Shown here: positions 469 through 34,852 of the stretch, in pieces
Numbering within the stretch: position 1 is the stretch's first letter
How the letters are laid out: the number at the start of each line of letters is the position of its first letter
DNA from: Escherichia phage vB_Eco_Sem3
Sequence record: PV775410.1
Strand: one strand, 5' to 3'
Length of the DNA: 45,137 nt
The notes under the pieces: model-generated
Seen by the model: only the letters and a program-made list of their open reading frames with translations
What the model was told of the DNA's origin: nothing
Database searches by the model: none
Made by a program: the position numbers and the translations under genes

Positions 469-843
469 TTACAGGTCTACTGGAAGCCATACCTTCTTCT
501 GCCCTTGGGTTACACTAAGAGAAGACCTATCATAGTCACGTGAATACTTGAGATTGTACTCTTCAGTACACCACTCTAAGTTGTCTACATGATTATGTGC
601 CTTGTCTTCATCCTTGTGGTTCACTAAGGGAAGATTATGAGGATTAGGCAAATGACACAGTGCAACCAAGCGATGCACACGGAATGTCTTCTTGCCTTCC
701 TCGTTACTAAGAACTACGTTCAAATACCCACTCTTTGACTTGCCCGGCTTCAGTATCTTGTGATTACCAATGAGCGATTTGACACGTCCATGAGTAGACA
801 CTTGATACCGTGGGTAGCCGGGAACAGTTACCCACGTTTCCAT
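469..843 (-). CDS. HNH homing endonuclease (124 aa)
   Basis: HNH motif ...LVNHKDEDKAHNHVDNLEW... and N-terminal YPRYQVSTHGRVKS (NUMOD-like); RBS AAGGAG upstream of ATG. Confidence 0.8.
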   Translation of the reverse strand: METWVTVPGYPRYQVSTHGRVKSLIGNHKILKPGKSKSGYLNVVLSNEEGKKTFRVHRLVALCHLPNPHNLPLVNHKDEDKAHNHVDNLEWCTEEYNLKYSRDYDRSSLSVTQGQKKVWLPVDL

Positions 844-853
844 ATCAATCTCC

Positions 854-997
854 TTAAGATGCAGAAGGTTTCTTCATGGCACGACGTTGTACATCCTTGG
901 CAATGGCATAAGCTTGCTTAGGGTCACGTCCTGATTGAATAAGCTCTTCTGTGTTCTGGCGTACAGCACTTTGCTTAACTGATTTGATTAATGGCAT
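854..997 (-). CDS. Hypothetical small basic protein (47 aa, MPLIKSVKQSAVRQNTEELIQ...)
   Basis: Hand-called ORF below the track size cutoff; RBS AGGAAG upstream; sits between tailspike 2 and the HNH gene. Confidence 0.35.
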   Translation of the reverse strand: MPLIKSVKQSAVRQNTEELIQSGRDPKQAYAIAKDVQRRAMKKPSAS

Positions 998-1008
998 TCA
1001 ACTTCCTA

Positions 1009-2721: not shown

Positions 2722-2806
2722 GTAACCTCCTCTTCTGAAAGGCTACCACCATGATAACCTTTAAGAAAAGTTGCGTGAAAAGCAGTGCTTACGCACTGCC
2801 TGTCTC

Positions 2807-4807: not shown

Positions 4808-4836
4808 CGTAAGACACTGATACATAAAGCTATGTA

Positions 4837-5273: not shown

Positions 5274-5381
5274 TGCACCTCCCTTTCCATTGTGCTAATA
5301 AAGTTGAGTAGTTCTGCCAATCTTCATAGTTACCTTCCTCTGAAGCCTTAGCAACCATGCGTTCACACCATGCAACACAAC

Positions 5382-5726
5382 CTACCATCGTGCACACCCG
5401 TCACGTACATCAATATGAGTAAAGGAGTTATACTTACCAATCCCATATTTGCCTTGGTACTTATCAGTAAGATACTTATGTACATCAGAAGGTAAGATGC
5501 CTCGTACCTTAATGTCAGCAGCCTTACCAGTAAGATGCATGGAGTTCTTAGCTCCTCCTACATTAGCATTGTGCTTAGCACAGCGGTGCCCCGAAGTGAT
5601 AACTACAGGAGAACCAAAGTGCTCACGCACATCTGTGACTACCTGTAGTAATTCAGCATCAACAGTGGATGTACCGCACCCACAACGGCAAGCGAACTCA
5701 CGGCGCTTGAAGTATTTGTTAAGCAT
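5382..5726 (-). CDS. Endolysin, L-alanyl-D-glutamate peptidase (peptidase M15 / VanY-like zinc peptidase)
   Basis: Start at MLNKYFKRREF (RBS GGTGGAG; TAATG overlap with the upstream gene stop). Motifs SGHRCAKHN…MHLTGKAADI…FTHIDVRD match the His/Asp/His zinc site of M15 peptidases. Confidence 0.8.
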   Translation of the reverse strand: MLNKYFKRREFACRCGCGTSTVDAELLQVVTDVREHFGSPVVITSGHRCAKHNANVGGAKNSMHLTGKAADIKVRGILPSDVHKYLTDKYQGKYGIGKYNSFTHIDVRDGCARW

Positions 5727-6453: not shown

Positions 6454-6476
6454 CCTTCTATAGTGTCCAGTAATTA
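6454..6476 (-). promoter_or_regulatory. Phage RNAP promoter (TAATTACTGG variant) overlapping the terminase large subunit stop codon
   Basis: Minus strand reads TAATTACTGGACACTATAGAAGG. Confidence 0.6.
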
Positions 6477-8372
6477 ATAAGTCCTTGAAATCCTTGCAGA
6501 AAGTGTATTTCTGCTTGCCGATTTATTTCGGTAGTTCTGCCCGTAAACTCGCTGCTGCATCGCTACGGAAGTGTTGGTCACTCTTCGCTCAGTACCGTAA
6601 TCCCCATATAGCATTGCCCTGCGTAGATGAGGTGTGTTCATAGCATGGATGTAATCTCGCATCTCCTGCGCTCTGAGGCGATTAATCCGTGTAACCTCGT
6701 CATAGTCTATCTGAGAAGTTAATTGCCGTATAGCGCCATACAGGGCGTCTAGGCGGTCATCGTGCCGGAGGCTGTTCTTCTCAATCGTTATGTTCGACAT
6801 TTGATTGAAAAGACTGTAGGACATGCGTAGTTCAAGCGGATAGTGCTGTACCGACTCAAAGTCTGACTTCACCATCTCTGCATTGAAGATAAGCCTATGT
6901 GCTGCCATGAGCGGCTCCAGCGTCTCAATGATACGCAATTCTTTCTGTCCGGTGGCGTAATCTTCTTCCAGAGTTACAGGCCACTCTCGTTCAAAGTACG
7001 GCTTAATTACCGCCTCAAACGCGCCATGACCAAAGTTCTTCTCAATGAATACCTCTTTAACACCCGCCTGCTTTGCGGCCTGCACAATGCGATTCAGGGA
7101 CGACTCTCGGTATCCGCCAGGTACACCAAAGCACTGATACACATAAATGAATGTGCCGTGCAGGAATACGATGGCTACACCCGTCTCATCTCCGTTCTTA
7201 CCACCACCTGCAGGGTCAATATACATAATCTTGCGGGAGACAGCACCCCATTCGTATGGGCGAGCTACAGGTCTGTACATGAAATCCGTAGGCTTGTTAC
7301 CATACTTAGGTGCATCACCAATTATGTTTATGGAATCATTACTCCACGTAGGCATCACAGGGACTTCCTCTGTACCAAACGAGGTGAAGATTAGATTGTT
7401 CAGGCGTAATGGGTATCTGTCAGCATCCATCATGCGAGTGTTAAGCATGAACTGAAGCTGGAACTTAGCAGCACCCTGAGAGATTTCCTTCTCAATCAGG
7501 ACTTCATCATCATACATTTCAGGGGCACAAGGTGCACCACTATTACCATCCAACCCGTACCCTGAGCGAAGTGCGGGGTTGTCCTTCATATCTTGAACAA
7601 TCATAGGTGCAAGGAAGTCGCCATAACATTGCTCTTGCTCTACTGAAGGGTAACGCGCAGTCCAGATACGAACAGAGTAACCACGAGCAGGTAGGTTGTT
7701 GTAGATAGAGTTTACGTTCTGAGGTGTACCAAGGTAAATGATATCTCCAAACTGGTTGATAGATTCAAACTCCTTAGTCAGTTCCTCAAGCAAGGCACGG
7801 CCCGCTGCCGTACGAGCATTCTGCATCGACTCTACGTCATCCGCTAGAATAATATCAGCACGAGCACCCTGCATACCTGCTTCGATTGAGTAACAGGATA
7901 CAGAAGGAGACTTATCACTACCACGTAGGGTGTAATGAATCTCAAACGCCTTAACGGATGCACGGTCCCCAGCGTAGATATCCGGCAGCATAAACTCAAG
8001 AAAGTCTAAGCCACGGAAGATTTTAACTACCCAACCTGCGATTTCCTCTGCTCGCTTGGCGTTTTGGGACACAACCATGATACGCTTATGCGGTTCATGA
8101 ATAATACGGAAGACCGTATAGATTGCTGATAGTGTTGTCTTAGCGATACCACGAGGCGCTTCGATGAGGCGGTACTTGTGTCCGTAAAATAGGAACTTCA
8201 AGATATCAGCCTGCATACGAATCAGATGAGGGTTGCCTGCAATTAAGTTATGAATAACTGTATCTGCAAAGAGAAGCAAACCTTCCGCTGTGTAAGGAAA
8301 GGTCTGCTGTAACTCCTGTAGCATCTCCCATCTGGCAAGAGCCTCCGCTTGTGATTCTCTTGCCTTAGCCAT
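6474..8372 (-). CDS. terL: Terminase large subunit
   Basis: About 632 aa; ATPase plus nuclease architecture typical of T7 gp19-like terminases; RBS AAGGAGGA; located after the small terminase gene. Confidence 0.85.
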   Translation of the reverse strand: MAKARESQAEALARWEMLQELQQTFPYTAEGLLLFADTVIHNLIAGNPHLIRMQADILKFLFYGHKYRLIEAPRGIAKTTLSAIYTVFRIIHEPHKRIMVVSQNAKRAEEIAGWVVKIFRGLDFLEFMLPDIYAGDRASVKAFEIHYTLRGSDKSPSVSCYSIEAGMQGARADIILADDVESMQNARTAAGRALLEELTKEFESINQFGDIIYLGTPQNVNSIYNNLPARGYSVRIWTARYPSVEQEQCYGDFLAPMIVQDMKDNPALRSGYGLDGNSGAPCAPEMYDDEVLIEKEISQGAAKFQLQFMLNTRMMDADRYPLRLNNLIFTSFGTEEVPVMPTWSNDSINIIGDAPKYGNKPTDFMYRPVARPYEWGAVSRKIMYIDPAGGGKNGDETGVAIVFLHGTFIYVYQCFGVPGGYRESSLNRIVQAAKQAGVKEVFIEKNFGHGAFEAVIKPYFEREWPVTLEEDYATGQKELRIIETLEPLMAAHRLIFNAEMVKSDFESVQHYPLELRMSYSLFNQMSNITIEKNSLRHDDRLDALYGAIRQLTSQIDYDEVTRINRLRAQEMRDYIHAMNTPHLRRAMLYGDYGTERRVTNTSVAMQQRVYGQNYRNKSASRNTLSARISRTY

Positions 8373-8671
8373 CAATCCTCCTTAGTGAATTGAATTATCT
8401 TACCACTGGATGCCTCTCGGATAGCCTTGAGGCGCTTAGATAACTTGGACTCTTCCTGCTGTGCAGCAGGTGTGGCGGTAATGCCGTTATCAAGAACCCA
8501 CTTACACATCGCACCAATATCCTTACCAGACACTAAATGTAATGCTGCATCAGGGTCTTCTTCTATAGTGTCCAGTATTGCCTGTGCTTTCTTATTGAAG
8601 ATTTTGGTAATAGCACCATGCAGAATGCCAACCTCATCCTCTGTAGCTGCATGTTTATTGTGTACGCTCAC
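8372..8671 (-). CDS. terS: Terminase small subunit (99 aa, GTG start)
   Basis: RBS GGAGGGAG 6 nt before GTG, immediately after the holin stop; position equivalent to T7 gene 18. Assigned by position and size, not by motif. Confidence 0.5.
   Translation of the reverse strand: MSVHNKHAATEDEVGILHGAITKIFNKKAQAILDTIEEDPDAALHLVSGKDIGAMCKWVLDNGITATPAAQQEESKLSKRLKAIREASSGKIIQFTKED
8557..8580 (-). promoter_or_regulatory. Promoter-like sequence inside the small terminase gene
   Basis: Minus strand reads CAATACTGGACACTATAGAAGAAG: 17-nt core conserved, upstream AT-rich part divergent. Confidence 0.4.
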
Positions 8672-9821: not shown

Positions 9822-12121
9822 CAATCCTCCAGTTCATCTAAGCCATAACGCAATGCGTTCTGGATTCCTATTACATTAGCTAGAGGCACTAAGCGTAAAG
9901 CCCTACGTGCCACATCTACACCTTCTGTATCACCCTCTGCGTATTTAGTTATAGAATCTGCTAAACGATATGCATCTTGACCAACACCTACTAGTGGTAT
10001 TTGGTCTATCAAACCCTTAGTCTGAAAGCCAGCCTCATAACGGGATTGTACTAACTCAGAAGGTAGAACACCTAGGCCACCTAAGAAATCTCCACCTAGA
10101 CTAAATACAGCAGTTGTACTCATCATACCCATTGCACCAAAGGCCAACCCTTTAGGCGATAACTTCTCTTCCAAATATTCATCTTGGTCTTCTCGACCAA
10201 TAGAGTTCACATAGGCTTTTGCCGCATACACTATTGAACCCAAAGCAAAACCATAAGCTGTCTTCTTAGCAAGACCAATTTTATCGTGGCGAATCCCTCG
10301 ACCAAATTGCTTCTCACCAGATACAAGAGAGAATGACTTAAGCTGTGCAAATGTCTTACCTAGTGCTTTGTTCATCCAGATACCTTCATCACCAATGAAA
10401 TTACGTTGGATAATTAGACCTGACTTACGACGAATAGCATTAGCTAAAGTTTCACCCATGGCATAAGGCATTGTATCAAAGCCAAGCAAGCCAGAACCTT
10501 TAGAGTTAGCATCATAGTGCTTCTGTAGGTTAGTCATGAACTCCTGAGTAAGACCAAGTTCCTCCAGTTTCTTCTGAGGAATAATCTTCTTGCCTTCAAG
10601 GTGGTCAATGAAAGACAAAGCTATTTGCCTATTGGTCATTCGCTCCAGAGAACCCTGTGCCATGCGGAAGAGGGATAGGTTTGTCTGAGCACGTCGTATA
10701 GAGTTCATGGACTGGTCAAAATGGGCCATCATACCTCGCACTGTGGTTACATCACCAAACTCATCGGGACGCGCACCCTTAGTTGTCAGCCAGTTGTCTT
10801 CACCAATGTAACCTACCATTCGCTCAACCTCAGCTAAATTCTTATCTCGAAAGAAGCCATCGCCATTACGCAACGCCTTAGAGGTGAAGCGGAATTGCTT
10901 ACCTAAAGCCATAGTGGTGGCAGCAATACCAAACTCACCCATGAAGTTAGCAAGTTCACCTAGCTGTGCGAAGCCCATCTGACCTAAGCGAAGTACACCT
11001 GTAATGTCACGCCCACGACGCAGCATTTTAGTAGACAAATCTTGTGGGTTTGAATCGATAGATTTACCCATAATCAAGCGAAGCCCTTCTCGCATCTGAC
11101 GGATTTCTTCATCAATAGCCAGACCAGCTGCTTCATCTTTCTCTTTCAATTTAAGTCGCTTCTTTAACTCTTCAATCTTCTCTTGTGCCTTCTTGTAATC
11201 AGGCTCTGATTGACGGATCTTAGCCGACTCCGCTTCAAATTGTGCGTGTGCTTTTGTATCTTTAGCTGCATTTCGTGCATTTCGCTCTACAAGATCAATT
11301 GCATTAAGTGCAGCCTGATAGGTAGAGAAACCTTGACGAGCCAAGGCAGCACCACCTGCCGCTTCCTTCATGTAGTTATCTGTTAACTCTTCCACGTTAG
11401 TGTTCATAAAGTCACGCATACGAATGCCATTGTACTCTTGAGTAACATCTAAGCCTAAACTCATCTTAGCTCGGTTAGAGATATTATCTCTGGTTTCTTT
11501 ATTATCCAGAGCTTCTACCATCTTTTCAATCTCTTCATCACTAAAGCCTGCTTTGCGCATTAGTGCTTCATATTCTGCTTTGGTTTGACCAGACATAGCC
11601 TTTTCAAAGCTAAGCTGTCCGGTCAGGGTGGCATCAGCAACGCGGTTTACTTGTGCTCGTGCAATATCATCAGCCACTTCCTTTGGAACCTTACGAGAAC
11701 CATTCTGGTATGCACGAGAGAATAACTCAATGATGTCCTCTTTATCGTGCATACTGAATTGACGACGAGCCTTCATACTATCAAAAATATCAGGCATGTA
11801 CTTATCATCTGCTTTAACCTTTTCAAACCCAGATTCACCAGAGCGTTGACGTAATGCTAATGCTTCACGATACATAGCTTGCTGCCCCTCTGCTGCCATA
11901 CGGATAGACTTAGGCGTAGACTCATCCATACCGATGCGTACAGCTTCCCATACCTTCTCATTATATTGCTGCACATAGTGAGAGTTAGTATGACCTGCAA
12001 CCGGGTTGATATTATTCTCTTTGAGCCATAAATCGAACCCATCATTGAAACGATTCATATCAGCAGATTTCAGACGGTTCAAGTTAGTATTCTGCATGAG
12101 ACTAGCAGATGCTTTCTGCAT
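9821..12121 (-). CDS. Internal virion (ejectosome/core) protein, 766 aa
   Basis: Large protein in the T7 gp15/gp16 position; assigned by synteny and size. Confidence 0.6.
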   Translation of the reverse strand: MQKASASLMQNTNLNRLKSADMNRFNDGFDLWLKENNINPVAGHTNSHYVQQYNEKVWEAVRIGMDESTPKSIRMAAEGQQAMYREALALRQRSGESGFEKVKADDKYMPDIFDSMKARRQFSMHDKEDIIELFSRAYQNGSRKVPKEVADDIARAQVNRVADATLTGQLSFEKAMSGQTKAEYEALMRKAGFSDEEIEKMVEALDNKETRDNISNRAKMSLGLDVTQEYNGIRMRDFMNTNVEELTDNYMKEAAGGAALARQGFSTYQAALNAIDLVERNARNAAKDTKAHAQFEAESAKIRQSEPDYKKAQEKIEELKKRLKLKEKDEAAGLAIDEEIRQMREGLRLIMGKSIDSNPQDLSTKMLRRGRDITGVLRLGQMGFAQLGELANFMGEFGIAATTMALGKQFRFTSKALRNGDGFFRDKNLAEVERMVGYIGEDNWLTTKGARPDEFGDVTTVRGMMAHFDQSMNSIRRAQTNLSLFRMAQGSLERMTNRQIALSFIDHLEGKKIIPQKKLEELGLTQEFMTNLQKHYDANSKGSGLLGFDTMPYAMGETLANAIRRKSGLIIQRNFIGDEGIWMNKALGKTFAQLKSFSLVSGEKQFGRGIRHDKIGLAKKTAYGFALGSIVYAAKAYVNSIGREDQDEYLEEKLSPKGLAFGAMGMMSTTAVFSLGGDFLGGLGVLPSELVQSRYEAGFQTKGLIDQIPLVGVGQDAYRLADSITKYAEGDTEGVDVARRALRLVPLANVIGIQNALRYGLDELED

Positions 12122-12123
12122 AC

Positions 12124-13128
12124 CTAAGCCTTGGGGGACTCAAACAGGCGAGCACCAAGGCCGCGTACACTTGCATCCTGAGAGGAATGTACGACAGTAC
12201 CAAGGGCAGACAGAGTTCCGGCCCAGCGGCGAGGGGCCATATCAATTGCATTACCTTCCCGCTGTAGGGTTTTCAGCAAATCTTCACCTTTGCTAGAGAT
12301 ATCAAATGCACCCTCAGTGAGTACCTCTTCACCCTTAACACGCATCGCACCGATACTATCATCAGCAACAGCACGCACATAGCGGTCCCCTGCGTCTGCA
12401 CTGCGCACAATACTCGCAGCCCTGTCATCTCCTTGCTCACTGAGCTTAGTGGCCCTACCACGCGCTACAGCTCCAATAACGCCACCCATAGCCATACCGG
12501 AGCCTAGTGCTACCATAATGTCATCTAAATCACGAGTCATGTCACCTTGGACCAATATGGATTCAATAGCGGCATTACTTACGCCAGCGGCGATAGCGCC
12601 ACGCACAGCACGGCCTACGAGTCCAACTTTAGCGGCACCACCGGTTGGAATAGAGGCAACCCATCCCACAGGGTCAAGCACAGCAGCGCCAATCGTCGCC
12701 ACAGAGCCAACCCAGCCAGCCTGAGCAATGCGCTTATTGCGCTCAAGGTCTTCATCAGCATTCTGAATACGGAAGTTCAATTCATCCTCAGAACGAACAC
12801 CCTCAGTGATTGTCTGCATCATATCTGTACCATATTTGAAACGTAGTGCTTCACGTTGCTCAGGTTGTATCTCGAAGTCTGGTTGAGGTGTGAAATCAGC
12901 AGTGGCACGGTCATACCACCGCTTGCCTCCAAATGCCAACCACTCATTCTGGAAGGCAGCACCTACAGCACCTAAGATATCAGCATCAGCTTTAGCTTCA
13001 AGAACTTGCTCTTGTAACTCATTACGCTGGCGTATCGTAGGAGCCGATACCGGAGCCGCCTCAATAGAAAACGGCTCAGGAGTAGACTGGACATATCCAG
13101 CCCAATTAGTCTTAATGTCTTGTTCCAT
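12124..13128 (-). CDS. Internal virion protein, 334 aa (Ala/Gly-rich hydrophobic core)
   Basis: RBS GGAGGAA; may be the N-terminal part of a split gp16-like protein together with 9821-12121. Confidence 0.5.
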   Translation of the reverse strand: MEQDIKTNWAGYVQSTPEPFSIEAAPVSAPTIRQRNELQEQVLEAKADADILGAVGAAFQNEWLAFGGKRWYDRATADFTPQPDFEIQPEQREALRFKYGTDMMQTITEGVRSEDELNFRIQNADEDLERNKRIAQAGWVGSVATIGAAVLDPVGWVASIPTGGAAKVGLVGRAVRGAIAAGVSNAAIESILVQGDMTRDLDDIMVALGSGMAMGGVIGAVARGRATKLSEQGDDRAASIVRSADAGDRYVRAVADDSIGAMRVKGEEVLTEGAFDISSKGEDLLKTLQREGNAIDMAPRRWAGTLSALGTVVHSSQDASVRGLGARLFESPKA

Positions 13129-13159
13129 AATTCCTCCATAGTGCCTATCATAAAGACCT

Positions 13160-13175
13160 GTCTCACATGTGAGAC
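13160..13175. repeat. Perfect 16-bp palindrome GTCTCACATGTGAGAC (intergenic hairpin element, copy 1)
   Basis: Read directly; flanked by CCT/AGG extensions; followed on the transcribed strand by TCTTTAT. Confidence 0.8.
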
Positions 13176-13192
13176 AAGCCTTGAGTTAGATA

Positions 13193-19263: not shown

Positions 19264-20000
19264 TAACGATCCTCCCACGGACGGAGCGCCCAACTCTCAT
19301 AAGGTGAATGAGAGTAAGCAGGTACATTCTGAGAGCCACCAGCCATGATACCAAACTGACGCTGAGTGGGGTTATGTACCAGCATGTTTAATCTCTTCTG
19401 TGACATTTGCTCAGATTGTACATCCATAAGAAGCTGAGTGGCTATCTGCTGCGCAGTGGCTAGCTTAGTCTGATCTGCATCCTTAGACACAATAAACTCT
19501 ACAGCAGCTTGATAGGCAATAGCCTGCATTACACTTGTAGGTAAATGCTCGTAGGGTAGTAAGGTGAGTAAGGTAAGACGAATCATACCATTAGCATTAA
19601 CATGCTTACGCATATCAAAGGTGTGACTCCAAGTAGAGTAGAGCTTACCTGCACGCATAGTCATAGGCACTTTCTTCTCACCCAATGCGTAGCACTGCAA
19701 TACAGCTAGGCAGTTATTAGGCAAGTTAATCTCACCGTTCGTATCTGGTGCAAGCTGCCAGTTAGGTTCACGATTGAACCACCAGCCACCGCCTTTGTTA
19801 TACTGGAAGCGCTGGGATACAATATCAATCATCTTACTTGCATCTTCAGCATCAAGGTCGCCTGAGTCGAGAGAATCCACACCCTCACGACCAATGGCTC
19901 GCATACAAAGGTTAACAGCCTCCAGCTTACTATCAATCACTTGAAAGGCTACATCTGAGACAGTATAGCCAGTGTAACTTTGTTGTTTAATAACAGGCAT
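19263..20000 (-). CDS. Tail tubular protein A
   Basis: About 245 aa; start at MPVIKQQ (RBS AGGAGGA); directly follows the capsid gene and terminator as T7 gp11 does. Confidence 0.8.
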   Translation of the reverse strand: MPVIKQQSYTGYTVSDVAFQVIDSKLEAVNLCMRAIGREGVDSLDSGDLDAEDASKMIDIVSQRFQYNKGGGWWFNREPNWQLAPDTNGEINLPNNCLAVLQCYALGEKKVPMTMRAGKLYSTWSHTFDMRKHVNANGMIRLTLLTLLPYEHLPTSVMQAIAYQAAVEFIVSKDADQTKLATAQQIATQLLMDVQSEQMSQKRLNMLVHNPTQRQFGIMAGGSQNVPAYSHSPYESWALRPWEDR

Positions 20001-20011
20001 GAATCCTCCTA

Positions 20012-20047
20012 ACAAAAAGAACCCTACCTACGCAAGGTAGATAGGGC
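20012..20047 (-). terminator. Hairpin plus U-tract terminator after the major capsid gene (T-phi-like)
   Basis: Minus strand reads GCCCTATCTACC-TTGC-GTAGGTAGGG followed by TTCTTTTTG. Confidence 0.65.
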
Positions 20048-20054
20048 ATAGGTA

Positions 20055-21260
20055 TTACTCAGCAGGTTTCATTGCAGTCGGCTTAATGTCATTAGCCATG
20101 ACAGCACGAACAGCAGCAACTAAGTCTTCAGCAGACAGACTAGCAGCAGCGGCAGCACCTGCCGGAGCAGCATTCTTGACGTATACAGCTTTGCGCTGTG
20201 CACGGTTAAGAACTTGAGTGTGCTGTGCTCCACCAGTACCCTCAGCATCACCAGTAGATGAGTTACGCTTAGTTGTCACAACAGACACTGCTTCCCAACG
20301 ATCAGGGATTGCACCTTCAGACATAAAGGTGTCAATGTAATAGGTCTTCTCTTTCTTCTCATAGAAGATATCACCTGTTACATCAATTGAACGACCAACA
20401 AGAAGAGCGTCAGCTGTGAACAGTACAGCGATAGCGCCATTCATTTCTGCAGTCGGGTCATAACGATAACCGTTGTCTTCATTTGACAGCAGGTGATGTT
20501 TCTGATCAGCAGAGAATTTAGGGAAGCGGTTAGACGGGATAACAGGGCAGTTGTAAGAAGACAGAACAAAACCCTGAATGGTTGCACCAGACTGGCTAAT
20601 GGTGTAGCTCTTGTCAACGATACGGTCTGCATCACGCAGTACGTTGAAGTAGCGCCATGGCATCAGAATAGCTACATCAGAGATATCAACTTCCTGCTCA
20701 AGCTGCTGCTCCAGAGCAAACTCTACAGCCGCCATTACATACTGCGGGTTGACCATCGCTTCTCCTTCATTGACCTCTACGTTGACAGAGAAGCCATGGC
20801 CTTTCACACGAGGGTTTTTGCGCTTAGCCTGAGTGTTGGCAATACCGCCCAGCAGCATCTGCTGAATCAGCATTTCATCTTCCATCTTCTTCAGCTGCTT
20901 CGCTTGGTTAGTAGCCAGCTTCGGCTTCAGGCTATCAATGTCACCCTGTACGTCGTGCAGGTGAGCAACAGTGTTACGAGCAATAACAGTGGCATCAATT
21001 ACCAGCTGGTTTTTATCTGCCTGAGTAGAGGTTGCAGCCGGAGATTGGCCCGGTGCCAGAACCTGCAACTCTGTTTCACCCAAATATTTGTTGCTTACAG
21101 TGTTAGTACCAGTAACAGTCTGAACATCAAAGTAGGACATGATGTTCTCACCTTTCAGGTACTGCTCATTTACCTTGCCATTGAATTTCTCAATGAGAAG
21201 GCTGTCTACCTCGCCGGAAGCAGAGACTGCAACGTTGGTCAGGTTATTCGGGGTGCTCAT
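20055..21260 (-). CDS. Major capsid protein
   Basis: 401 aa; strong RBS AAGGAGG; preceded by the strongest-looking phage promoter and followed by a terminator; T7 gp10-like size and position. Confidence 0.9.
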   Translation of the reverse strand: MSTPNNLTNVAVSASGEVDSLLIEKFNGKVNEQYLKGENIMSYFDVQTVTGTNTVSNKYLGETELQVLAPGQSPAATSTQADKNQLVIDATVIARNTVAHLHDVQGDIDSLKPKLATNQAKQLKKMEDEMLIQQMLLGGIANTQAKRKNPRVKGHGFSVNVEVNEGEAMVNPQYVMAAVEFALEQQLEQEVDISDVAILMPWRYFNVLRDADRIVDKSYTISQSGATIQGFVLSSYNCPVIPSNRFPKFSADQKHHLLSNEDNGYRYDPTAEMNGAIAVLFTADALLVGRSIDVTGDIFYEKKEKTYYIDTFMSEGAIPDRWEAVSVVTTKRNSSTGDAEGTGGAQHTQVLNRAQRKAVYVKNAAPAGAAAAASLSAEDLVAAVRAVMANDIKPTAMKPAE

Positions 21261-21307
21261 TAATAAACCTCCTTATAAATCAAATTGATAATTTAGGGAG
21301 ACATTTC

Positions 21308-21331
21308 TCCCTTCTATAGTGTCCAGTAAAT
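21308..21331 (-). promoter_or_regulatory. Phage RNAP promoter upstream of the major capsid gene
   Basis: Minus strand reads ATTTACTGGACACTATAGAAGGGAGA. Confidence 0.75.
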
Positions 21332-21336
21332 ACTGA

Positions 21337-22257
21337 TTACAGACCGCGAGCCATACCAGCACGACGGCGAGCATCCAGTTTAGCCTGATACTCAGCAGCA
21401 GCTTTCTTGTCTGTACCGAAGCGAGAGCTAAGAGTCATCATCTCACGCAGGTACTGCTCACGAGAGAGTGGGCCATTATCTTCAGATGCAGCAGCAGGTG
21501 CAGAGGGTTCAATCAGGTTTGGTTTGTCATCACCCTGTGCAGACTTACGGCGGCTCTCCAGTTCACGCACAGCGTACTGCTGGAGGTACTGGTTGCCAGA
21601 CTCCATCACCGCATTGAATGCCGTGAGTTCGTCATCGGATAGCGTTTCAAGCGCCCACGCCTCAAGACGTGACCACCCTTCTTCACCACCAACTTCCTTA
21701 GAGATATCAGAGAAGCGCTGAGTGTTAGCTGCTTCCCGCTCTTTAGCTGCGTTGGCTTCTTTCAGGAAGAAGGCTTCATTTTGAGCCTTAAGACCTGACA
21801 GGTAAGCATCTACCGCAAACTTGCCAAAAGCATCATACAATTTCTGCTTGGTTGCATCTGACAGTTCAAACTTGCCACCTTTGGAATAGAGTTCCTTGGC
21901 AACCTGCTTGGCATCAATGCCTTTCTCTTTAAGGCTGTCAGTTACATCCTGTGGGATGTCTATTGTTACTTCATGTTCTCCGAAGAAGTATTGCACTTCC
22001 TCAGTGTCGGTCGCGGTATCATCTGGCTTAGATTCACCATTCTCTCCGCCATTGTCTCCTTTTTCTGAAGGCTGTCCAGAAGCTTCTCCTCCGGTGTCTT
22101 CAGTAGGTTGTGCACCAGCATTGTCATCTTGTACAGCAGTGCCAGCGTCAGCAGGAGCATCAGTAGTAGCAGCATCAGTTGTTACCTCCTTGGTTTCTAC
22201 CGGACCCTCTTCAGCAGTAGGGTGAGTGGTTGACGGTTCAGTAAATGAGAAAGACAT
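21337..22257 (-). CDS. Scaffolding protein
   Basis: 306 aa, acidic with a low-complexity N-terminus and helical C-terminus; between portal and capsid genes; TAATG overlap with portal. Confidence 0.75.
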   Translation of the reverse strand: MSFSFTEPSTTHPTAEEGPVETKEVTTDAATTDAPADAGTAVQDDNAGAQPTEDTGGEASGQPSEKGDNGGENGESKPDDTATDTEEVQYFFGEHEVTIDIPQDVTDSLKEKGIDAKQVAKELYSKGGKFELSDATKQKLYDAFGKFAVDAYLSGLKAQNEAFFLKEANAAKEREAANTQRFSDISKEVGGEEGWSRLEAWALETLSDDELTAFNAVMESGNQYLQQYAVRELESRRKSAQGDDKPNLIEPSAPAAASEDNGPLSREQYLREMMTLSSRFGTDKKAAAEYQAKLDARRRAGMARGL

Positions 22258-23807
22258 TACGCCTCCTTAAGTTCTTGTTGAATTACACCCGGCACGGCCT
22301 TAGCCACACCTTCTTCAAGCATCTGTGCTTGCTGTGCTTGCATCTGTGCTTCCTGTTCTTGTGCTATCTCTTCAGCCGATTTAAGGAACGGCAGTTCAGC
22401 AGAGATTTGACCACGCACCCAATCCATATAGTCAGGCCATTTCACAGCAGCTAGGACAGGCTCAGGCCATTGTAATGGCAGTGACATATACTGAGCAAAG
22501 TTAGCCAGTTTATCCAACTCAGCCATGCGTCCTAAAGCTTCAATACCTGTGATTATCACAGGGTCCACTAGGTCACTAGTGAAGGACTCACCTGCCTCCA
22601 GCAGACCCCACATCGCTACTGGCGATTGCATAGTAGTAGCAAAGAGGGAGTATACACCACCCATGTTCTGCTCAATCTCTAACGCATCTCGCTGGATTTC
22701 TACAGCAGTAACACGTTCGGCGTCACGGCGTGTCATTGTCTCCATCATGAAGACAACACCGATACGGCGAGTGTATACCTCTAGAACCGCGCTAATAGGT
22801 GTGAGGTCTGCATACTTACCTAACTGTACAATATGGATGTCTTCTTCTACACCAGTGACAACCTCACCAGTGCCAGAGTTAACAAAGTGGTCAACATCAG
22901 TTTGAGCACCCGGACGAATCAGGTACTTGATATCTGCCATCAGCGCAGCACCACGGGCAACCGCTTCAGATAAGAATTGGATAACGAATAAATCACCGGA
23001 GTAATCCTCTGCAAGAGGGCGACCCCAATCCTCACCATAGCTTCGCTTCCAAGTTAATGGGATGAAAGGTAGCTTTTCTGATTTGATTTTACTCACCTTA
23101 CCCACAGGGATATCATCAGCAGATTGCTTGAGTTCCCAAAATCCATCACCAAGATACTTAGCATGTGTGTACAGCTTAACGCTGTCATCTTCTTTGCACT
23201 TCTTACCTTTCAGGCCAACCTCTACTACAGCACGTGTAGCTGGGTCAAAGGTACGTAAGGCTTTCTCTTGTAGCAAGATAATGTCTAGCAGGTCGCCATT
23301 GGTATCACGGTTAACTACGTAGTGATGCATTGGGATAGCACTGATTGCACCTTTGCTCGGCTTGTATAGCAGACAGCTGCCAGCAACAATAAGATGCTTA
23401 AATGCTTCTACTACAGCAGGCCGGAATTGACGTTGCTCTAACTCTTTCATTGCCCGTGTTTCCACTTGAGCGAAGATAGTAGCTAACTCTGTCTTCTTCA
23501 GGCCACGCTGATTAAGAACCTTCTCACCTTGTGCAGTTAAGTCTACACGGAAGAAGGAACGCTGTGCAGGGAATAGCACTTGCGCTAGCTTGTTGGCTAG
23601 ATGGTTAGTTGCCTGAGCACCCACACCTTGCCATCCATTCTGCGAAGTCTCATTATCACCTTTGTCATTCATCAGATAGGGCAAGGTTAATTTGGAGTAA
23701 TGCTTCGCCCTATCAAGGAAAGAGCTACGTTTAGTGGAGAATTTCTCCCATAGCTTAGGTATCTTAGACCGCTTACCTCCATACTCCAAATCTGTGCTCT
23801 GTTTCAT
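22257..23807 (-). CDS. Portal (head-tail connector) protein
   Basis: 516 aa, T7 gp8-sized; RBS GAAGGTG; assigned by size and synteny. Confidence 0.85.
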   Translation of the reverse strand: MKQSTDLEYGGKRSKIPKLWEKFSTKRSSFLDRAKHYSKLTLPYLMNDKGDNETSQNGWQGVGAQATNHLANKLAQVLFPAQRSFFRVDLTAQGEKVLNQRGLKKTELATIFAQVETRAMKELEQRQFRPAVVEAFKHLIVAGSCLLYKPSKGAISAIPMHHYVVNRDTNGDLLDIILLQEKALRTFDPATRAVVEVGLKGKKCKEDDSVKLYTHAKYLGDGFWELKQSADDIPVGKVSKIKSEKLPFIPLTWKRSYGEDWGRPLAEDYSGDLFVIQFLSEAVARGAALMADIKYLIRPGAQTDVDHFVNSGTGEVVTGVEEDIHIVQLGKYADLTPISAVLEVYTRRIGVVFMMETMTRRDAERVTAVEIQRDALEIEQNMGGVYSLFATTMQSPVAMWGLLEAGESFTSDLVDPVIITGIEALGRMAELDKLANFAQYMSLPLQWPEPVLAAVKWPDYMDWVRGQISAELPFLKSAEEIAQEQEAQMQAQQAQMLEEGVAKAVPGVIQQELKEA

Positions 23808-23808
23808 A

Positions 23809-24018
23809 TTACACCTTCAAGCTAGAAGCTACCGGACGGACAAGGCCACGCTTGCCTTTTGCAGATGCAGTAGCATCATCATCTCCTGCACCAATCTGAA
23901 TATCTTCAGCTTCAGTCTCTGGCTTACGCTCAAGCTGCTGTGCTGGCACTTTCGCTTCAATACGTGGTGCATCTTGAGCAAGACCGATAGCCTTAAATGC
24001 TTTCTTTACAACACCCAT
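23809..24018 (-). CDS. Hypothetical small protein, 69 aa (possibly a gp6.7-like virion protein)
   Basis: RBS AAGGAG; small charged protein immediately upstream of portal. Confidence 0.45.
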   Translation of the reverse strand: MGVVKKAFKAIGLAQDAPRIEAKVPAQQLERKPETEAEDIQIGAGDDDATASAKGKRGLVRPVASSLKV

Positions 24019-26662: not shown

Positions 26663-27688
26663 CTTGCCAATCCAACGGTTGTCGCTATTGGTTTGCATCG
26701 GGACAATATGAGGTACACCCTCCAGAATAACCACACAACCTAATGCTGGCTTGTATTTAGACTCACGCCCATAGGCAAATGCACGGGATGACTCATCAAT
26801 TAAGCAGCCACCTTGCACAGCCCAATACTGTTCATGTGTATTACGTGCGTACTCCACAGACATCTTACCGTGCAAGTGACCACACACAAGGTTCATACGC
26901 TCATGCGCTGCATCTGCTAGGACAGAGCCAGCAGGTTGATGCTTGAATGCCACCTGTTCGCCATTCGGCAACTCAAGAACATGTGTATGCTGCCAATCCC
27001 ACTGGTCGCCACCTCCATTTGGGAAGAAGACTTCACGGTAGGTGCGAAGATATTGCACTGGAATACCCTTGGCGCTTGCCTTACGGAAGTGCATAGAGCC
27101 GTGATTAGAATGACACAGGCGCATCACAGGGAACATCTTGTGCAACTTGTGCATGAAGACACGAGCCTTCTCTAGCTCCATGCCAGCACTATCCAGATTC
27201 GGGTCAGAGTCATGGAAGGAGAGGGCGTGTTTATCTGCCTCATCTCCTAAGTGAACCACTGTATCTGGACGGTAACGTGCCGCGACTGCTGCAAGGAACT
27301 CTAAGGTATCTGGATGCTCATAAGGTGCATGAGTATCAGGGATTACCAATACACTTCGATGAGGCGAGTCAGGCAATGGTACAATAGCCAAATCCTCGTA
27401 GCGGTCAGGAGTCCTGAGCTTACGCTCTTCTTTGATACGCTTATCTTCTTGCAGAAGGGTCTGGTAATAATCACCATTCTTCTTGGTCTTCTTGAATTGA
27501 CCATGCCAGTATCGAGCCAACTGGCGGGTAATCTTCTTACCCACAGGGTGACACGATAATACACGTGCCATCTCATTGTAATTAACATTACCTTTCTCGT
27601 CGGTAGCTTGCTCGATTGCATCAAGTACCTCGGAGTCTTTGTACAAGCTGCGAAGCTTACCCAACTTTAACCTCCTTCTTTCTTGCAT
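26657..27688 (-). CDS. Calcineurin-like metallophosphoesterase
   Basis: Motifs …VLVIPDTHAPYEH…, …HLGDEADKH…, …GHLHG… typical of binuclear metallophosphatases; start uncertain (track ORF extends to 27796 and overlaps the endonuclease gene). Confidence 0.7.
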   Translation of the reverse strand: MQERRRLKLGKLRSLYKDSEVLDAIEQATDEKGNVNYNEMARVLSCHPVGKKITRQLARYWHGQFKKTKKNGDYYQTLLQEDKRIKEERKLRTPDRYEDLAIVPLPDSPHRSVLVIPDTHAPYEHPDTLEFLAAVAARYRPDTVVHLGDEADKHALSFHDSDPNLDSAGMELEKARVFMHKLHKMFPVMRLCHSNHGSMHFRKASAKGIPVQYLRTYREVFFPNGGGDQWDWQHTHVLELPNGEQVAFKHQPAGSVLADAAHERMNLVCGHLHGKMSVEYARNTHEQYWAVQGGCLIDESSRAFAYGRESKYKPALGCVVILEGVPHIVPMQTNSDNRWIGKI

Positions 27689-28067
27689 AAGCAAGGCGTG
27701 CCTTACGGTTCTTAGCCTCGCGCTTCTCTGCCTCCGTTTGATGTTTGTGATATAACTTATCTGTCTGAGGCGTACTATGTAACTTCCAGTATTCATATAG
27801 TCGCTCTAACCATTGAAGCTGGAAGTAACGGTTGTTACCAGCCTTACCGTAACCAGAGATAACACCCTTAATCTTTCCTTCTGCACCATTGCAGCCTCGG
27901 CATACAACAGCACGGCAGAATCCTGTCTCATGGTCATGGTCAAGTACACGGTTTATAGGAGTAACAGCCTTGAGACTGCCGCCACATAGTGGGCACTTCC
28001 ACCCTTGCTTCTCTAGCAATTCCCTCTTATAAGCTGCTACCTCCGATGATTTTAATTTGCTAACCAT
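27657..28067 (-). CDS. Endonuclease VII-like junction-resolving nuclease
   Basis: 136 aa; …WKCPLCGG…LDHDHETGFCRAVVCRGCN… matches the Cys4 plus H-N-H pattern of T4 endo VII-type enzymes. Confidence 0.7.
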   Translation of the reverse strand: MVSKLKSSEVAAYKRELLEKQGWKCPLCGGSLKAVTPINRVLDHDHETGFCRAVVCRGCNGAEGKIKGVISGYGKAGNNRYFQLQWLERLYEYWKLHSTPQTDKLYHKHQTEAEKREAKNRKARLAYARKKEVKVG

Positions 28068-30095: not shown

Positions 30096-30104
30096 CCTTT
30101 CTCC

Positions 30105-31063: not shown

Positions 31064-31086
31064 TGTTCTATAGTGTCCAGTAATTA
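31064..31086 (-). promoter_or_regulatory. Phage RNAP promoter (TAATTACTGG variant) overlapping a stop codon
   Basis: Minus strand reads TAATTACTGGACACTATAGAACA. Confidence 0.55.
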
Positions 31087-31461: not shown

Positions 31462-31525
31462 GTTTATATCTCCTATATTTACTTAATTACCTATACTACC
31501 TTATAAACCTAGATTGTCTAGGCTT

Positions 31526-31547
31526 TCCTTCTATAGTGTCCAGTAAA
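31526..31547 (-). promoter_or_regulatory. Phage RNAP promoter
   Basis: Minus strand reads ATTTACTGGACACTATAGAAGGAA. Confidence 0.7.
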
Positions 31548-31830
31548 TCATGTTAGACAAAATAAGTAGGGATAAGTTATCCATAAAGGCCACTCGTAAG
31601 TGACCTTGAGTATAACTCAGTCGTAGTTACCATCACAATCCGGGTCAATGCCAGAGAAGGCCCAGAGTACTACCATAAATAATATGATACCAAGAATAAT
31701 AAAAGCAGTTTGCATTAGTCGTAACCCTCTTCTTCATCAGGTATATCTAGTCTCATACTCCCATAACAAGCAAGCATAAGGAGTGTAAGAAAGAGAGTGA
31801 AGAATAGGCAAATAATGTCAAGCCTATCCA

Positions 31831-34380
31831 TCAGTGTGTTTCCTTCCAGCTTGCGCCAATCTTATATTCTCCTGCCATCGGGCAACGCATCTTCAGATAC
31901 TGCCCTGCCCAAGTCATGGCGTCGGCAATGATATGACCTGCACGGTGATAGCGGCGCTGGCAATGCAATACACCAGCATCAGCATCAACGCTAACGAGGT
32001 TTGCAGCAGACCACATACGTCCTTCAGAATCCACATGAATACGTTTCTCCTCTGCATCGAAAACTGCTTTCACAGCAGCCTTCTCTGTTTCGAACCCATC
32101 TAAGGTGAAAGGTAGGTCGTAGTTAAGATACAAGACCTCCTCTTCAGGAACTTCCATCTGGATTTCATCATGCACGTTAGCCACACCACAAGGATTTCCC
32201 ATAGCATCCAAAGCTACACCTTCCTTGCGCATTACTGCAAATGCCTTGACTAATGCATATTTCATACACAAAGAGCCAGTCATCTGGAGTAATACGTTAA
32301 GCATCGTGTGCTCTTTAAGTTCACCACCAGACATGCGGATGCGACCCCAATGCCCATCAGGTGCTTGCAGGTAGCCAAACTTGTTACCTTGTGCGATAAC
32401 ATTCTCACGAAGACGTGCAAGAGACGGTAGTTCAATCTCGAATCTTGCCACAACTTCCTTCATTTCTTCCTCAGTAACACCGCAGACTGCTGCAAGGTTG
32501 GCTATACCAGAACCATAGAGGAAGGCGTATATAAACGTCTTCGCCATATCACGCTTAGGAAGACCAGCCTTCATCTGGTTATGCGTATGAATATCACCGT
32601 GCAGTACAATCTCTTGGTACTCAGGGTCATTCATGAAGTGAGACAGGACACGCAGTTCAAGACCTGCACCGTCACAACCAAGAATTAGCTTGCCTTTCCC
32701 TGCTATGAATAAATCACGTAAAGGATACAAGCCACGGGCAGGAATATTAACCACGTTACGATGACGCATACGGAACGTAGAAGTGCCAATACTAATAGCA
32801 ACAGCTGGAACACGCCACTCTCCGTCATCTTTGTCAGACGTAGGCCAACATCCGTACCTCTCGTAGTATTGCTGCGCATTGATTCCTAGCTCCTTGTTGA
32901 ATGCTACAGGTACAAGGCCGCGACACTTTCGTACACCAGCCTGCGAGGGCCACGTTCCCTTCTCGTTGAAGGCTTCAACGTCACCACGGTTGAGTATCTG
33001 ACCACGACGGGATACGAGTATGTACCATGCAGCGATACCCAAGCACCAATCAGGGACTGTTTTACCTTCACGTGCGGCTCTTTCTTGCCATAAAGTGAGA
33101 GACTTTTCATTTATCTTACCACTCCAAGGTTTTGGTAACACTCCGTGCTCATCGAGATGAGCTTGCTCGGTATCGTTAAATTCAACACCTTTCCATCCAT
33201 ACTCATAGAGCACTTGCTTAACTGTATCCCTGTTACCCAAGGGAATCTCTTCGAAAGTAACAGGCGAGTAAGCGCCAATCCACTTGATGCTTGGCGTGTC
33301 ATTACGGTTTCCTCTAAGGTGAGGAAAGTCTTTCTTGACACTAGCCGACCAATCACCAGACTTAGTAGTGACACTCCATACTGTCTTGCGATCTCCTCGT
33401 CTCTCGGCATGAAGAAAGTGTGAGGGGTCAAGGACAGTAGGTATATTGTTGCTAGCTCCATACTCATTTGCGCGTTGGCATACTTCATTCTTTTCTTCCG
33501 GTTTAAAAGGTTTAGACTTGATACGCATAGGCATGTGAGGGCGGAACGCTGCGACTGTCTCATCAATCTTAGCGTCCAATTCTTCGCATCGGGCCAAAGC
33601 CTTGTCTATGTCCAGACGGAACCCGCGCTCGGCCTGACGGCTCATCTCCAGCGCCACAATGGACTCCATGTGGAAGGCTGTCTCAATGCCTAGGCCCGTG
33701 CGTTTATTCACGCCACGGCGTTTGTGCTCCATCCATTCCCCGTTAAAGAGCCAGAGGAACAAGTCACGACCAATCGCCACGTCCTCACGTACACGGTGAA
33801 CCATGTGGTCAGTTAGTTTAGACCAGTCCTCGTTCTCCGGTTTATAGCGACCTATACGGATGCCGTGCGCCTCAATTGAGTGAGGGGCGACGTTACCCAT
33901 ACCTTTGGCATATGCTTGCGGAGGAAGGCGTCTATCGGGGTTTAACAGGCGACTCATCACCAGCGTATCGACCACCTTAATGGGACACAAGTCTGCCCTT
34001 AAGCTGCCTTTGCCACGACGCTGGGTATAATTATACCCTTTCCAGATATCTGGAAATGCTTTCTCTAAAGCTAAACCATCATAGCCTAAGAAGTTTTGAG
34101 AAACGATAGCATCCGCATGATATAGGAAATTAACACCATCTTCCAGAGTACCATCTTGATGTCCTTCCCATTCAACTAAATGCTCTCTTGCAGAAGGATC
34201 TCTATTCTCAAATGAGTTAAAGAAAAGAAACTCTTCGGTAGTTAGTAGATCTACGCAGCAGATAATATGGACATCGTGATTACCTTTACCATAACGTATA
34301 GCGTCTAACAAACCTTTCGCTTCCAAATCCATAACTAGGATTCTGCCTTTAGCGGCCTCTTTCCAATTAATACCTTTCAT
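31831..34380 (-). CDS. DNA polymerase (family A, with 3'-5' exonuclease domain)
   Basis: 849 aa; N-terminal exonuclease-like region (…VMDLEAKGL…) and C-terminal polymerase motifs (…LHGDIHTHNQ…, …KTFIYAFLYGSG…, …VANVHDEIQMEV…); T7-like position. Confidence 0.9.
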   Translation of the reverse strand: MKGINWKEAAKGRILVMDLEAKGLLDAIRYGKGNHDVHIICCVDLLTTEEFLFFNSFENRDPSAREHLVEWEGHQDGTLEDGVNFLYHADAIVSQNFLGYDGLALEKAFPDIWKGYNYTQRRGKGSLRADLCPIKVVDTLVMSRLLNPDRRLPPQAYAKGMGNVAPHSIEAHGIRIGRYKPENEDWSKLTDHMVHRVREDVAIGRDLFLWLFNGEWMEHKRRGVNKRTGLGIETAFHMESIVALEMSRQAERGFRLDIDKALARCEELDAKIDETVAAFRPHMPMRIKSKPFKPEEKNEVCQRANEYGASNNIPTVLDPSHFLHAERRGDRKTVWSVTTKSGDWSASVKKDFPHLRGNRNDTPSIKWIGAYSPVTFEEIPLGNRDTVKQVLYEYGWKGVEFNDTEQAHLDEHGVLPKPWSGKINEKSLTLWQERAAREGKTVPDWCLGIAAWYILVSRRGQILNRGDVEAFNEKGTWPSQAGVRKCRGLVPVAFNKELGINAQQYYERYGCWPTSDKDDGEWRVPAVAISIGTSTFRMRHRNVVNIPARGLYPLRDLFIAGKGKLILGCDGAGLELRVLSHFMNDPEYQEIVLHGDIHTHNQMKAGLPKRDMAKTFIYAFLYGSGIANLAAVCGVTEEEMKEVVARFEIELPSLARLRENVIAQGNKFGYLQAPDGHWGRIRMSGGELKEHTMLNVLLQMTGSLCMKYALVKAFAVMRKEGVALDAMGNPCGVANVHDEIQMEVPEEEVLYLNYDLPFTLDGFETEKAAVKAVFDAEEKRIHVDSEGRMWSAANLVSVDADAGVLHCQRRYHRAGHIIADAMTWAGQYLKMRCPMAGEYKIGASWKETH

Positions 34381-34852
34381 ATCTAGACCAACCTTTGTGA
34401 GATTTGAAATTCCGCCAACCTTTATACACCTTACTCATAGAATTAAGGTTGAGGTTGTTTTCTTTGCAGAATTTAGACAAGTTAAATACTTCTACTCGTT
34501 CTCCTTCTGGATTACAGAATATGTAGGATTTAGCACAAGCAGCTTCGTGTCTCTCTTTAGAATGCGCAGTGTTACCTAACCTATCAGTCCATTCTAAATT
34601 ATCTTCATGACAGTTAGCTCTGTCATAATCTTTATGGTTGACTTCTGGTAAATTAAGAGGGTTCGGTATGAAATTCTCTGCCACCAAGCGGTGCAATTTC
34701 CTATGCTTTCCTGCAATATTCATTATCCGATAACCATCTTTGTCAAGATAACCTACAAGGAATCTGTTTGTTATCGTGCTAAAGATACGACCATCGGAAT
34801 AGAGGATGTAGTTAGTAAAAATCCTCGTACATTTGATCTGTTTCGAACTCAT
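34367..34852 (-). CDS. HNH homing endonuclease (161 aa) abutting the DNA polymerase start
   Basis: Start at MSSKQIK (RBS AGGAGGGAGG); …LPEVNHKDYDRANCHEDNLEW… HNH motif; 3' end overlaps the DNAP start by 14 nt. Confidence 0.75.
   Translation of the reverse strand: MSSKQIKCTRIFTNYILYSDGRIFSTITNRFLVGYLDKDGYRIMNIAGKHRKLHRLVAENFIPNPLNLPEVNHKDYDRANCHEDNLEWTDRLGNTAHSKERHEAACAKSYIFCNPEGERVEVFNLSKFCKENNLNLNSMSKVYKGWRNFKSHKGWSRYERY

Follow-up and report, generated by a model that had tools for sequence, protein, structure and literature searches.

The window analysed here is the whole 45,137-nucleotide (nt) sequence of Escherichia phage vB_Eco_Sem3 (record PV775410.1); as a phage genome it is complete and K1E-like (genus Vectrevirus, Molineuxvirinae), and its genes lie on the minus strand. 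It carries two HNH endonuclease genes: HNH-A, encoding 161 amino acids (aa), at 34367-34852 beside the start of the DNA polymerase gene, and HNH-T (124 aa) at 469-843, beside the right terminal repeat. A preliminary description, made from the sequence alone, had named HNH genes at these two positions, and both open reading frames (ORFs) are borne out by matches to PHROG 59 and, in sequence as well as in fold, to I-HmuI of Bacillus phage SPO1 (PDB entry 1U3E). Both are labelled HNH homing endonuclease in the near-identical GenBank record of Klebsiella phage vB_Ka_Sem4 (PV775411), which is 99.9% identical to window positions 115-45129 with 8 mismatches and 16 gap openings; the E. coli phages Sem1 and Sem2 are nearly identical too.

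The two HNH genes and their products

PHROG 59/959 were matched, the profile of PHROG 59 (“HNH endonuclease”) at E=1.9e-40 by HNH-T and at E=1e-26 by HNH-A. Against the PDB, phmmer aligns I-HmuI with HNH-A at E=2.2e-6 over residues 14-156, and with HNH-T at E=4.1e-12, spanning only chain residues 3-113. AlphaFold models of HNH-A (predicted local distance difference test score (pLDDT) 92) and HNH-T (pLDDT 88, with disorder past about residue 112) retrieve 1U3E in Foldseek, the former at E=2.3e-10 over 175 columns and the latter at E=2.8e-8 with a template modelling (TM) score of 0.70. By sequence and by Foldseek, 1U3E is the sole significant solved-structure relative of either protein. HNH-T matches the Pfam domain NUMOD4 (PF07463) at E=1.3e-11. 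HNH-A has no NUMOD4 match in Pfam, yet its alignment to I-HmuI begins at residue 12 and its model shows the strands; its first ten or so residues are encoded in the overlap with the upstream gene, gp11.5.

The two proteins are 41% identical across the core. When each was aligned with the other and with 22-29 homologues from the databases, all columns invariant across the 24-31 homologues (N-H-x-D, N-L-E and a distal N) proved to be retained in both, as N72, H73, D75, N85 and N94 in HNH-A and as N75, H76, D78, N88 and N97 in HNH-T, and both models place a strand-strand-helix arrangement at the conserved HNH residues with pLDDT above 90. On this combination of sequence and predicted structure, both proteins are I-HmuI-like HNH (His-Me finger) homing endonucleases by family. 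The alignment of HNH-A to I-HmuI runs nearly end to end, up to 1U3E residue 167, and covers the C-terminal helix-turn-helix-like domain, where its model has helices at 125-131 and 136-144; a Pfam search of HNH-A gave no PF22083 match at E<=0.01. Among the 1,519 database homologues of HNH-T listed, most are 155-200 aa long and several carry PF22083, and in a set of 5.8 billion proteins, self-matches aside, the closest homologue shows just 57-63% identity.

Both genes are free-standing, since no intron model is matched: an Rfam scan of the entire window matched no family, so no group I or II intron. Each HNH ORF lies between genes and has its own ribosome-binding site (the ATG of HNH-A is preceded by AGGAGGGAGG, that of HNH-T by AAGGAG), neighbouring ORFs are unbroken, and the polymerase ORF is continuous over 849 aa. 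It is in consequence very improbable that the endonucleases are intron-encoded, as the RAST label “intron”, noted on both HNH coding sequences (CDS) of PV775411, would have it, and as is the case for I-HmuI itself, which is encoded in an intron inside a polymerase gene.

The polymerase locus

The stretch from gp11 to the polymerase gene occurs in at least three states among relatives. In 6948, K1E, KMB47, EEc4 and LI10P3, gp11.5 (35 aa) is followed by gp12, a cysteine-rich protein of 72 aa that is encoded at full length in about 35 records; in VEc3, for example, gp11.5 stands without gp12 or HNH; and in about 11 of about 91 related records an HNH gene of one of three diverged types follows gp11.5. 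Type A (97.5-100% identical) is carried by Sem1, Sem2, Sem4 and ULINTec4, type B (61% identical to HNH-A) by LL11, ULINTec7, T147P9 and LI10P5, and type C (56% identical to HNH-A) by T205P4. An HNH 53% identical to HNH-A is found at the same site in Klebsiella phage ZK1, which belongs to the subfamily and lies outside the genus. Because there are three types at 56-61% identity and one in a Klebsiella phage outside the genus, the presence of an HNH gene at the polymerase site is old, and only its arrival on this backbone recent. The two genes had been described as free-standing and mobile, a description that is essentially right, with the age of the polymerase site as a correction. Types A and B share a near-identical 5' end, comprising the first ~53 nt of the ORF and the upstream overlap with gp11.5 (window 34800-34904 compared with LL11), past which they fall to ~60-70% identity; this makes the HNH genes themselves mosaic.

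The window retains a gp11.5 homologue (68.6% identity to 6948 gp11.5 in tblastn; PHROG 15473 at E=1.3e-18) and has no gp12, so HNH-A is a replacement of gp12 and not the filler of an empty site. A search of the window for a relocated copy of gp12 found none; the 42-aa ORF that relatives carry at the right end (see below) was not found in the window either, which rules out that either was merely moved within it. We also ruled out that gp12 is a decayed HNH: it has no Pfam match and belongs instead to its own PHROG of unknown function. gp12 opens with MKTIK, a duplicate of the polymerase start (MKTID in VEc3), and on either side of the gene lie imperfect direct repeats of the sequence at that start (TATGAAAnCnATT; VEc3 1278-1430, 6948 1265-1483). 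In VEc3 its absence is exact, and gp11.5 takes its place in overlapping the polymerase gene, which suggests that gp12 is itself an old inserted cassette.

The HNH-A gene overlaps the polymerase ORF by exactly 14 nt (ATGAAAnnnATTnA), as had been described. This overlap had also been read as a classic sign of homing, a reading that has to be given up: it is no evidence of homing, because the same overlap exists with gp12, gp11.5 or HNH upstream. The identical 14 nt are shared with gp12 in 6948, K1E, KMB47 and EEc4, with gp11.5 in VEc3 and with HNH in ZK1. The overlap is therefore a fixed property of the polymerase start across these genomes, presumably serving translational coupling.

The window and the HNH-less phage 6948 are 96.3% identical genome-wide. 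Upstream of HNH-A they are identical from 35175 to 34894 except for two single-nucleotide polymorphisms (SNPs), and they diverge from 34893; the polymerase gene has 123 mismatches within nt 7-411 and a lone one (nt 774) in the next ~860 nt. Compared with ULINTec4 the pattern is reversed, the window differing upstream of 34905 and being near-identical from 34904 onward. The upstream crossover lies inside gp11.5, at 34894-34904. From these two mismatch patterns we conclude that a 924-nt type-A tract is set on an otherwise 6948-like backbone, and that the polymerase gene is a natural chimera. Polymerase nt 1-411 within the tract is ~71% identical to 6948. Among 14 phages compared, type-A nt 1-414 is ~70% identical to every other allele, as far as it is from that of ZK1, and nt 415-1270 is 94-100% identical among Vectrevirus genomes. 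In the entire phage collection, the type-A 5' allele was found in only four records, all with a type-A HNH, and other alleles are at most 76% identical. The foreign segment is a functional homologue: the tract-encoded part of the polymerase is identical to the 6948 allele at 107 of 138 aa, the codon differences comprise 54 that are synonymous and 30 that are non-synonymous, and the exonuclease motifs VMDxE and SQNFLGYD are preserved.

In divergence, the donor of the tract is roughly on a par with another genus. Scans of IMG/VR with both HNH proteins gave nothing nearer than the known type-B and type-C alleles, and a search of the polymerase N-terminus against 5.8 billion proteins gave only fragments of 76-81% identity, with no closer donor. 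The best donor fragment was rejected, as it comes from an ordinary Vectrevirus contig that has gp12, lacks an HNH and has its polymerase call split: in this Logan contig (ERR14117515, 5001-7546) the polymerase is called as ORFs of 174 aa and 689 aa, either through a frameshift error or through a real interruption.

Each HNH type comes with a variant of polymerase nt 4-72 of its own, and type-B and type-C genomes all have a diverged block there, in a region (nt 1-72) that is almost uniform in HNH-less Vectrevirus. In LI10P5 the tract stops at the end of this block, in LL11 and ULINTec7 at about nt 411-414. A cleavage site at nt ~411 was considered from these recurrent tract ends and set aside, as it is indistinguishable from a simple homology boundary.

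The right end of the genome and other features

An exact 301-nt repeat occurs at both ends of the window. Since its edges match the physical end and the annotated terminal repeat of phage mutPK1A2, it is the direct terminal repeat: in alignment the outer edge is the physical genome end of mutPK1A2, and by eye the inner edge falls near the end of the 286-bp “redundant repeat” annotated there. HNH-T is the last credible gene before this repeat, as had been described, and its stop lies 54 nt from the inner edge. The order of the locus is second tail-spike gene, conserved 47-49-aa ORF, variable slot, ~40-nt spacer and terminal repeat. The slot holds a 42-aa hydrophobic ORF in 6948 and EEc2 (region full length in 12 records), another ORF of 51 aa in mutPK1A2 (p62, an alternative non-nuclease cassette), and a full-length 153-aa HNH, 51-53% identical to HNH-T, in LL11 and G9. 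HNH-T occurs in five records (Sem1, Sem2, Sem4 and two of LI10P3) at 98-100% identity, and its cassette stands in place of the intergenic region and 42-aa ORF of HNH-less relatives. The flanks agree closely with those of 6948: identity is 94-100% from 851 upward, towards the genes, and 100% for 401-450, towards the repeat. The conserved 47-aa ORF upstream (97.9% aa identity to the EEc2 ORF; PHROG 2423 at E=2.3e-23) has its last codons changed at the cassette junction, and three SNPs at ~906-945 in it are common only to the window and the HNH-T-positive LI10P3. As the terminal repeat of LI10P3 is strongly unlike that of the window despite the near-identical HNH-T, the cassette has moved between backbones.

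All four combinations of the two genes occur: both in the Sem phages, HNH-A only in ULINTec4 (which has no close HNH-T copy), HNH-T only in LI10P3 (which has gp12 at the polymerase site), and neither in 6948 and many others. Universal presence, which would have spoken against mobility, is excluded by this comparison with relatives, most of which have no HNH at each position. The two genes had been put down as probable recent insertions. Recent exchange is favoured, because the sequence beside each cassette is nearly identical to that of HNH-less 6948; insertion is not, as gp12 and the 42-aa ORF have been replaced.

Table 1. Positions of the HNH genes and associated features in the window
Feature	Position	Strand	Evidence
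HNH-A, 161-aa free-standing I-HmuI-like HNH endonuclease gene	34367..34852	-	ORF, ribosome-binding site, PHROG, 1U3E, model
HNH-T, 124-aa free-standing I-HmuI-like gene (NUMOD4 and HNH core)	469..843	-	Pfam, PHROG, 1U3E, model
Mosaic type-A tract, 924 nt (3' two-thirds of gp11.5, HNH-A, polymerase codons 1-137)	33970..34893	-	mismatch maps against 6948
DNA polymerase gene, 849 aa, natural chimera (first 137 codons in type-A tract)	31831..34380	-	ORF; allele comparisons
Overlap of upstream ORF stop and polymerase start	34367..34380	-	14 nt; not HNH-specific
gp11.5 homologue, 36 aa, retained; overlaps HNH-A start out of frame	34812..34922	-	tblastn, PHROG, mismatch maps
Terminal cassette, ~400 nt (HNH-T and its Shine-Dalgarno)	458..855	-	alignment with 6948, EEc2, LI10P3, LL11
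Conserved 47-aa ORF upstream of HNH-T, homologue of relatives' 49-aa ORF	854..997	-	identity, PHROG
Conserved spacer from right terminal repeat to cassette; fixed right cassette border	416..457	.	near-invariant in window, mutPK1A2, 6948, LI10P3
Right copy of direct terminal repeat	115..415	.	exact repeat; aligns with mutPK1A2 terminal repeat and end
Left copy of direct terminal repeat	44829..45129	.	exact 301-nt repeat
Endonuclease VII, 136 aa, third His-Me-finger nuclease gene	27657..28067	-	PF02945 E=1.5e-12; PHROG 423 E=2e-47
SP6-like promoter matches	4790, 6458, 8563, 21314, 26645, 29827, 31068, 31531, 36327, 38847	-	consensus match

The terminal repeat has ~85 nt more than those of 6948, LL11, G9 and mutPK1A2 (~250-335, second copy ~44964-45049); the extra sequence holds three CTAGTAC motifs and one TACACAAGGGCAG motif, a near-copy of which is intergenic, upstream of the 42-aa ORF, in HNH-less phages. 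Outside the repeats, window positions 1-114 and 45130-45137 have no match in relatives, the phage collection or E. coli genomes and are unlike the corresponding ends of PV775411; they are probably assembly or adapter junk and not phage DNA. In PV775411, capsid, portal, scaffold and tail-tube genes (16816-23809) are each broken into several CDS; the same ORFs are unbroken in the window (401, 516, 306 and 810 aa, respectively), which suggests indel errors in that record.

A third “HNH” of this genome type, the “HNH endonuclease motif protein” of 6948, was rejected as a mobile element, being a conserved endonuclease VII gene; its ORF in the window is identical to 6948_0035 and is without annotation in PV775411. 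Mosaic tracts relative to 6948 with no nuclease gene nearby lie at 20100-21500, 11600-12300, 5300-5500 and 39100-41000 (61-87% identity per 100 nt), and they show mosaic exchange to be general in Vectrevirus.

An SP6-like phage promoter consensus, mostly TACTGGACACTATAG, has 14 matches against 1.4 expected, none of them directly upstream of either HNH gene, and scans for sigma-70 promoters and terminators near HNH-A and HNH-T gave results at or below shuffled expectation. A 46-nt element is present in three copies (13150-13195, 34944-34989 and 36088-36133) and on the transcribed strand forms a perfect hairpin of 13 bp with UUUUAU after it (~-22 kcal/mol, z = -4). The copy that separates gp11 from gp11.5, a short way upstream of the HNH-A cassette, is conserved in HNH-less relatives. 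The element may be a terminator or an RNA-processing site.

Homing, its alternatives and known systems

We consider it probable that the two ORFs are homing-endonuclease genes that stand free, belong to the I-HmuI lineage (HNH_3 / NUMOD4) and occupy two hypervariable cassette loci. Family, free-standing position, sporadic and independent assortment and the linked diverged tract point one way, these being, by analogy with known systems, the products expected of intronless homing. In a mixed infection, the enzyme would nick or cut a related phage's HNH-less allele near the locus, and repair would copy the HNH-bearing allele plus a variable flanking stretch, yielding the tract. The diverged polymerase 5' end of every HNH-bearing genome would carry target-site differences and so give immunity, the likeliest target of HNH-A being polymerase nt 1-72 of HNH-less alleles. 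We infer these steps, that is cleavage of HNH-less alleles, immunity through nt 1-72 and a tract made by repair, from comparisons of sequence.

Several observations weigh against this reading. Both proteins fall under the gathering score of Pfam HNH_3 (PF13392, 24.8 bits), HNH-A at 21.4 and HNH-T at 16.4 bits; the type-B HNH of LL11 at the polymerase site barely clears it at 25.1 bits. HNH-T ends at about I-HmuI residue 113, without the C-terminal DNA-binding domain through which I-HmuI contacts a part of its long target, and may be weakened or decaying. The non-nuclease genes gp12, the 42-aa ORF and mutPK1A2 p62 are equally sporadic at these loci; the recurrent tract end at about polymerase nt 411 is the start of a more conserved stretch and may mark only where homology resumes; and ordinary recombination could give the pattern, because other mosaic tracts (e.g. 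20100-21500) have no HNH nearby.

On these grounds the loci might be ordinary recombination hot spots, with the HNH genes as passengers or decaying relics. The alternation of non-nuclease cassettes at both loci fits such passive mosaicism, as do the duplicated polymerase-start sequence flanking gp12, its precise absence from VEc3, and the diverged HNH-free tracts found genome-wide between the window and 6948. It applies especially to HNH-T, which is shorter than nearly all its homologues and for which the relic reading gains plausibility from the missing DNA-binding domain. However, both ORFs are intact and retain every invariant catalytic and structural residue, the near-identity of HNH-T in five genomes with strongly differing terminal repeats suggests recent spread, and few aligned segments of the genome are as diverged as the polymerase 5' tract, which is perfectly linked to a type-A HNH, in four of four records. 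Passive mosaicism is the main rival, and we hold it to be unlikely. A domesticated function, in which HNH-T aids terminase on concatemers (as HK97 gp74 does) or HNH-A serves replication or is mainly a weapon against co-infecting relatives and not a selfish element, is less probable again. The proximity of HNH-T to the repeat and the fact that I-HmuI-type enzymes are nickases would suit it, but HNH-T is missing from ~100 related genomes that package alike, the terminase genes are ~5.6 kb away (roughly 6470-8667), and HNH-A too is absent in most relatives. The match is to the I-HmuI family, and nothing ties the proteins to packaging-associated HNH proteins, so a packaging role for HNH-T is unlikely, even if packaging and homing roles need not be exclusive (PMC10448857, discussion).

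Beyond homing-endonuclease genes in cassette loci, we tentatively suggest a wider picture, which is possible but rather doubtful, in which the polymerase start of Vectrevirus and its relatives is a long-lived multi-allelic homing battleground, where types may attack each other's as well as HNH-less alleles and repeatedly leave chimeric polymerases. At least three I-HmuI-like types, and a fourth in a Klebsiella phage, would each be tied to their own first ~72 nt of the polymerase and would compete much as I-HmuI does with I-HmuII. The 137-codon exonuclease-domain N-terminus found here would come from an unsampled lineage with a divergence like that of another genus, and the recurrent end at nt ~411 would be either a second site of cleavage or a point at which repair preferentially stops.

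The two uncharacterised HNH genes exemplify a form of gene mobility that is commonplace and familiar in phages. That such genes stand free beside essential ones is well documented, and the label is already present in near-identical GenBank records, so the finding matters little beyond bookkeeping in that respect. The foreign first 137 polymerase codons mean that polymerase phylogenies or primers based on the 5' end will mislead, and in phage therapy cocktails mixing Vectrevirus strains the HNH cassettes predict directional marker exchange between co-infecting phages. Matched natural pairs with and without HNH (Sem-type and 6948) are a system for measuring intronless homing in phages of the T7 supergroup.

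Among known systems the closest enzyme is I-HmuI, an HNH nicking homing endonuclease of a type whose members are nickases. It has in common with both proteins the beta-beta-alpha-metal core and, at the N-terminus, a DNA-binding beta-sheet module, and HNH-A, by alignment and model, appears to share its C-terminal helix-turn-helix-like domain, which is missing from HNH-T; I-HmuI and HNH-A also both go with the DNA polymerase gene of a phage. However, I-HmuI lies inside a group I intron of that gene, whereas the genes described here are free-standing, HNH-A upstream of the polymerase start and HNH-T at the genome end. Identity to I-HmuI is only 27-34%, and its VDHKD is VNHKD here: the residue preceding the catalytic His is Asn in place of Asp, which holds for all 30 homologues sampled. 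HNH proteins of the HK97 gp74 type assist terminase at cos sites and are conserved in the packaging module beside the terminase genes. HNH-T resembles gp74 as a small HNH protein encoded near a genome terminus, but it is a sporadic member of the I-HmuI family (5 records), its phage has direct terminal repeats, and 5.6 kb separate it from the terminase genes. Nicking endonucleases have been reviewed (PMC3017599), and “extra” HNH genes have been noted in a Vectrevirus relative to K1-5 (bioRxiv 10.64898/2026.09.20.752992).

The arrangement also has a parallel in phage T4, where SegF, SegG and MobE are free-standing homing endonucleases that carry out intronless homing with co-conversion of flanking markers. 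As with these, a nuclease gene lies between essential genes, its presence is polymorphic among close relatives, and a linked diverged flanking tract reaches into the neighbouring essential gene. SegF and SegG are, however, GIY-YIG and not HNH enzymes, and cleavage sites and marker exclusion have been shown experimentally for the T4 system, where our case is drawn from sequence. T4 has 12 free-standing homing-endonuclease genes (PMC3943268). In phages more widely, such genes cluster beside essential genes, with polymerase genes the commonest neighbour (29%) for one HNH class (PMC10448857), and Barth, Dunham and Seed (2023, PMC10448857) describe them at the edges of exchanged tracts in phages that include ICP1. 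That work concerns the T5orf172 and IPA-HNH classes and “HEG islands” (islands of homing-endonuclease genes) of more than 10 kb, whereas the tract described here is below 1 kb and the enzymes are I-HmuI-like. In both settings, a recombinant tract has at one of its ends an HNH gene that adjoins a replication gene, and cognate endonuclease genes at the same locus can be diverged homologues in unchanged surroundings.

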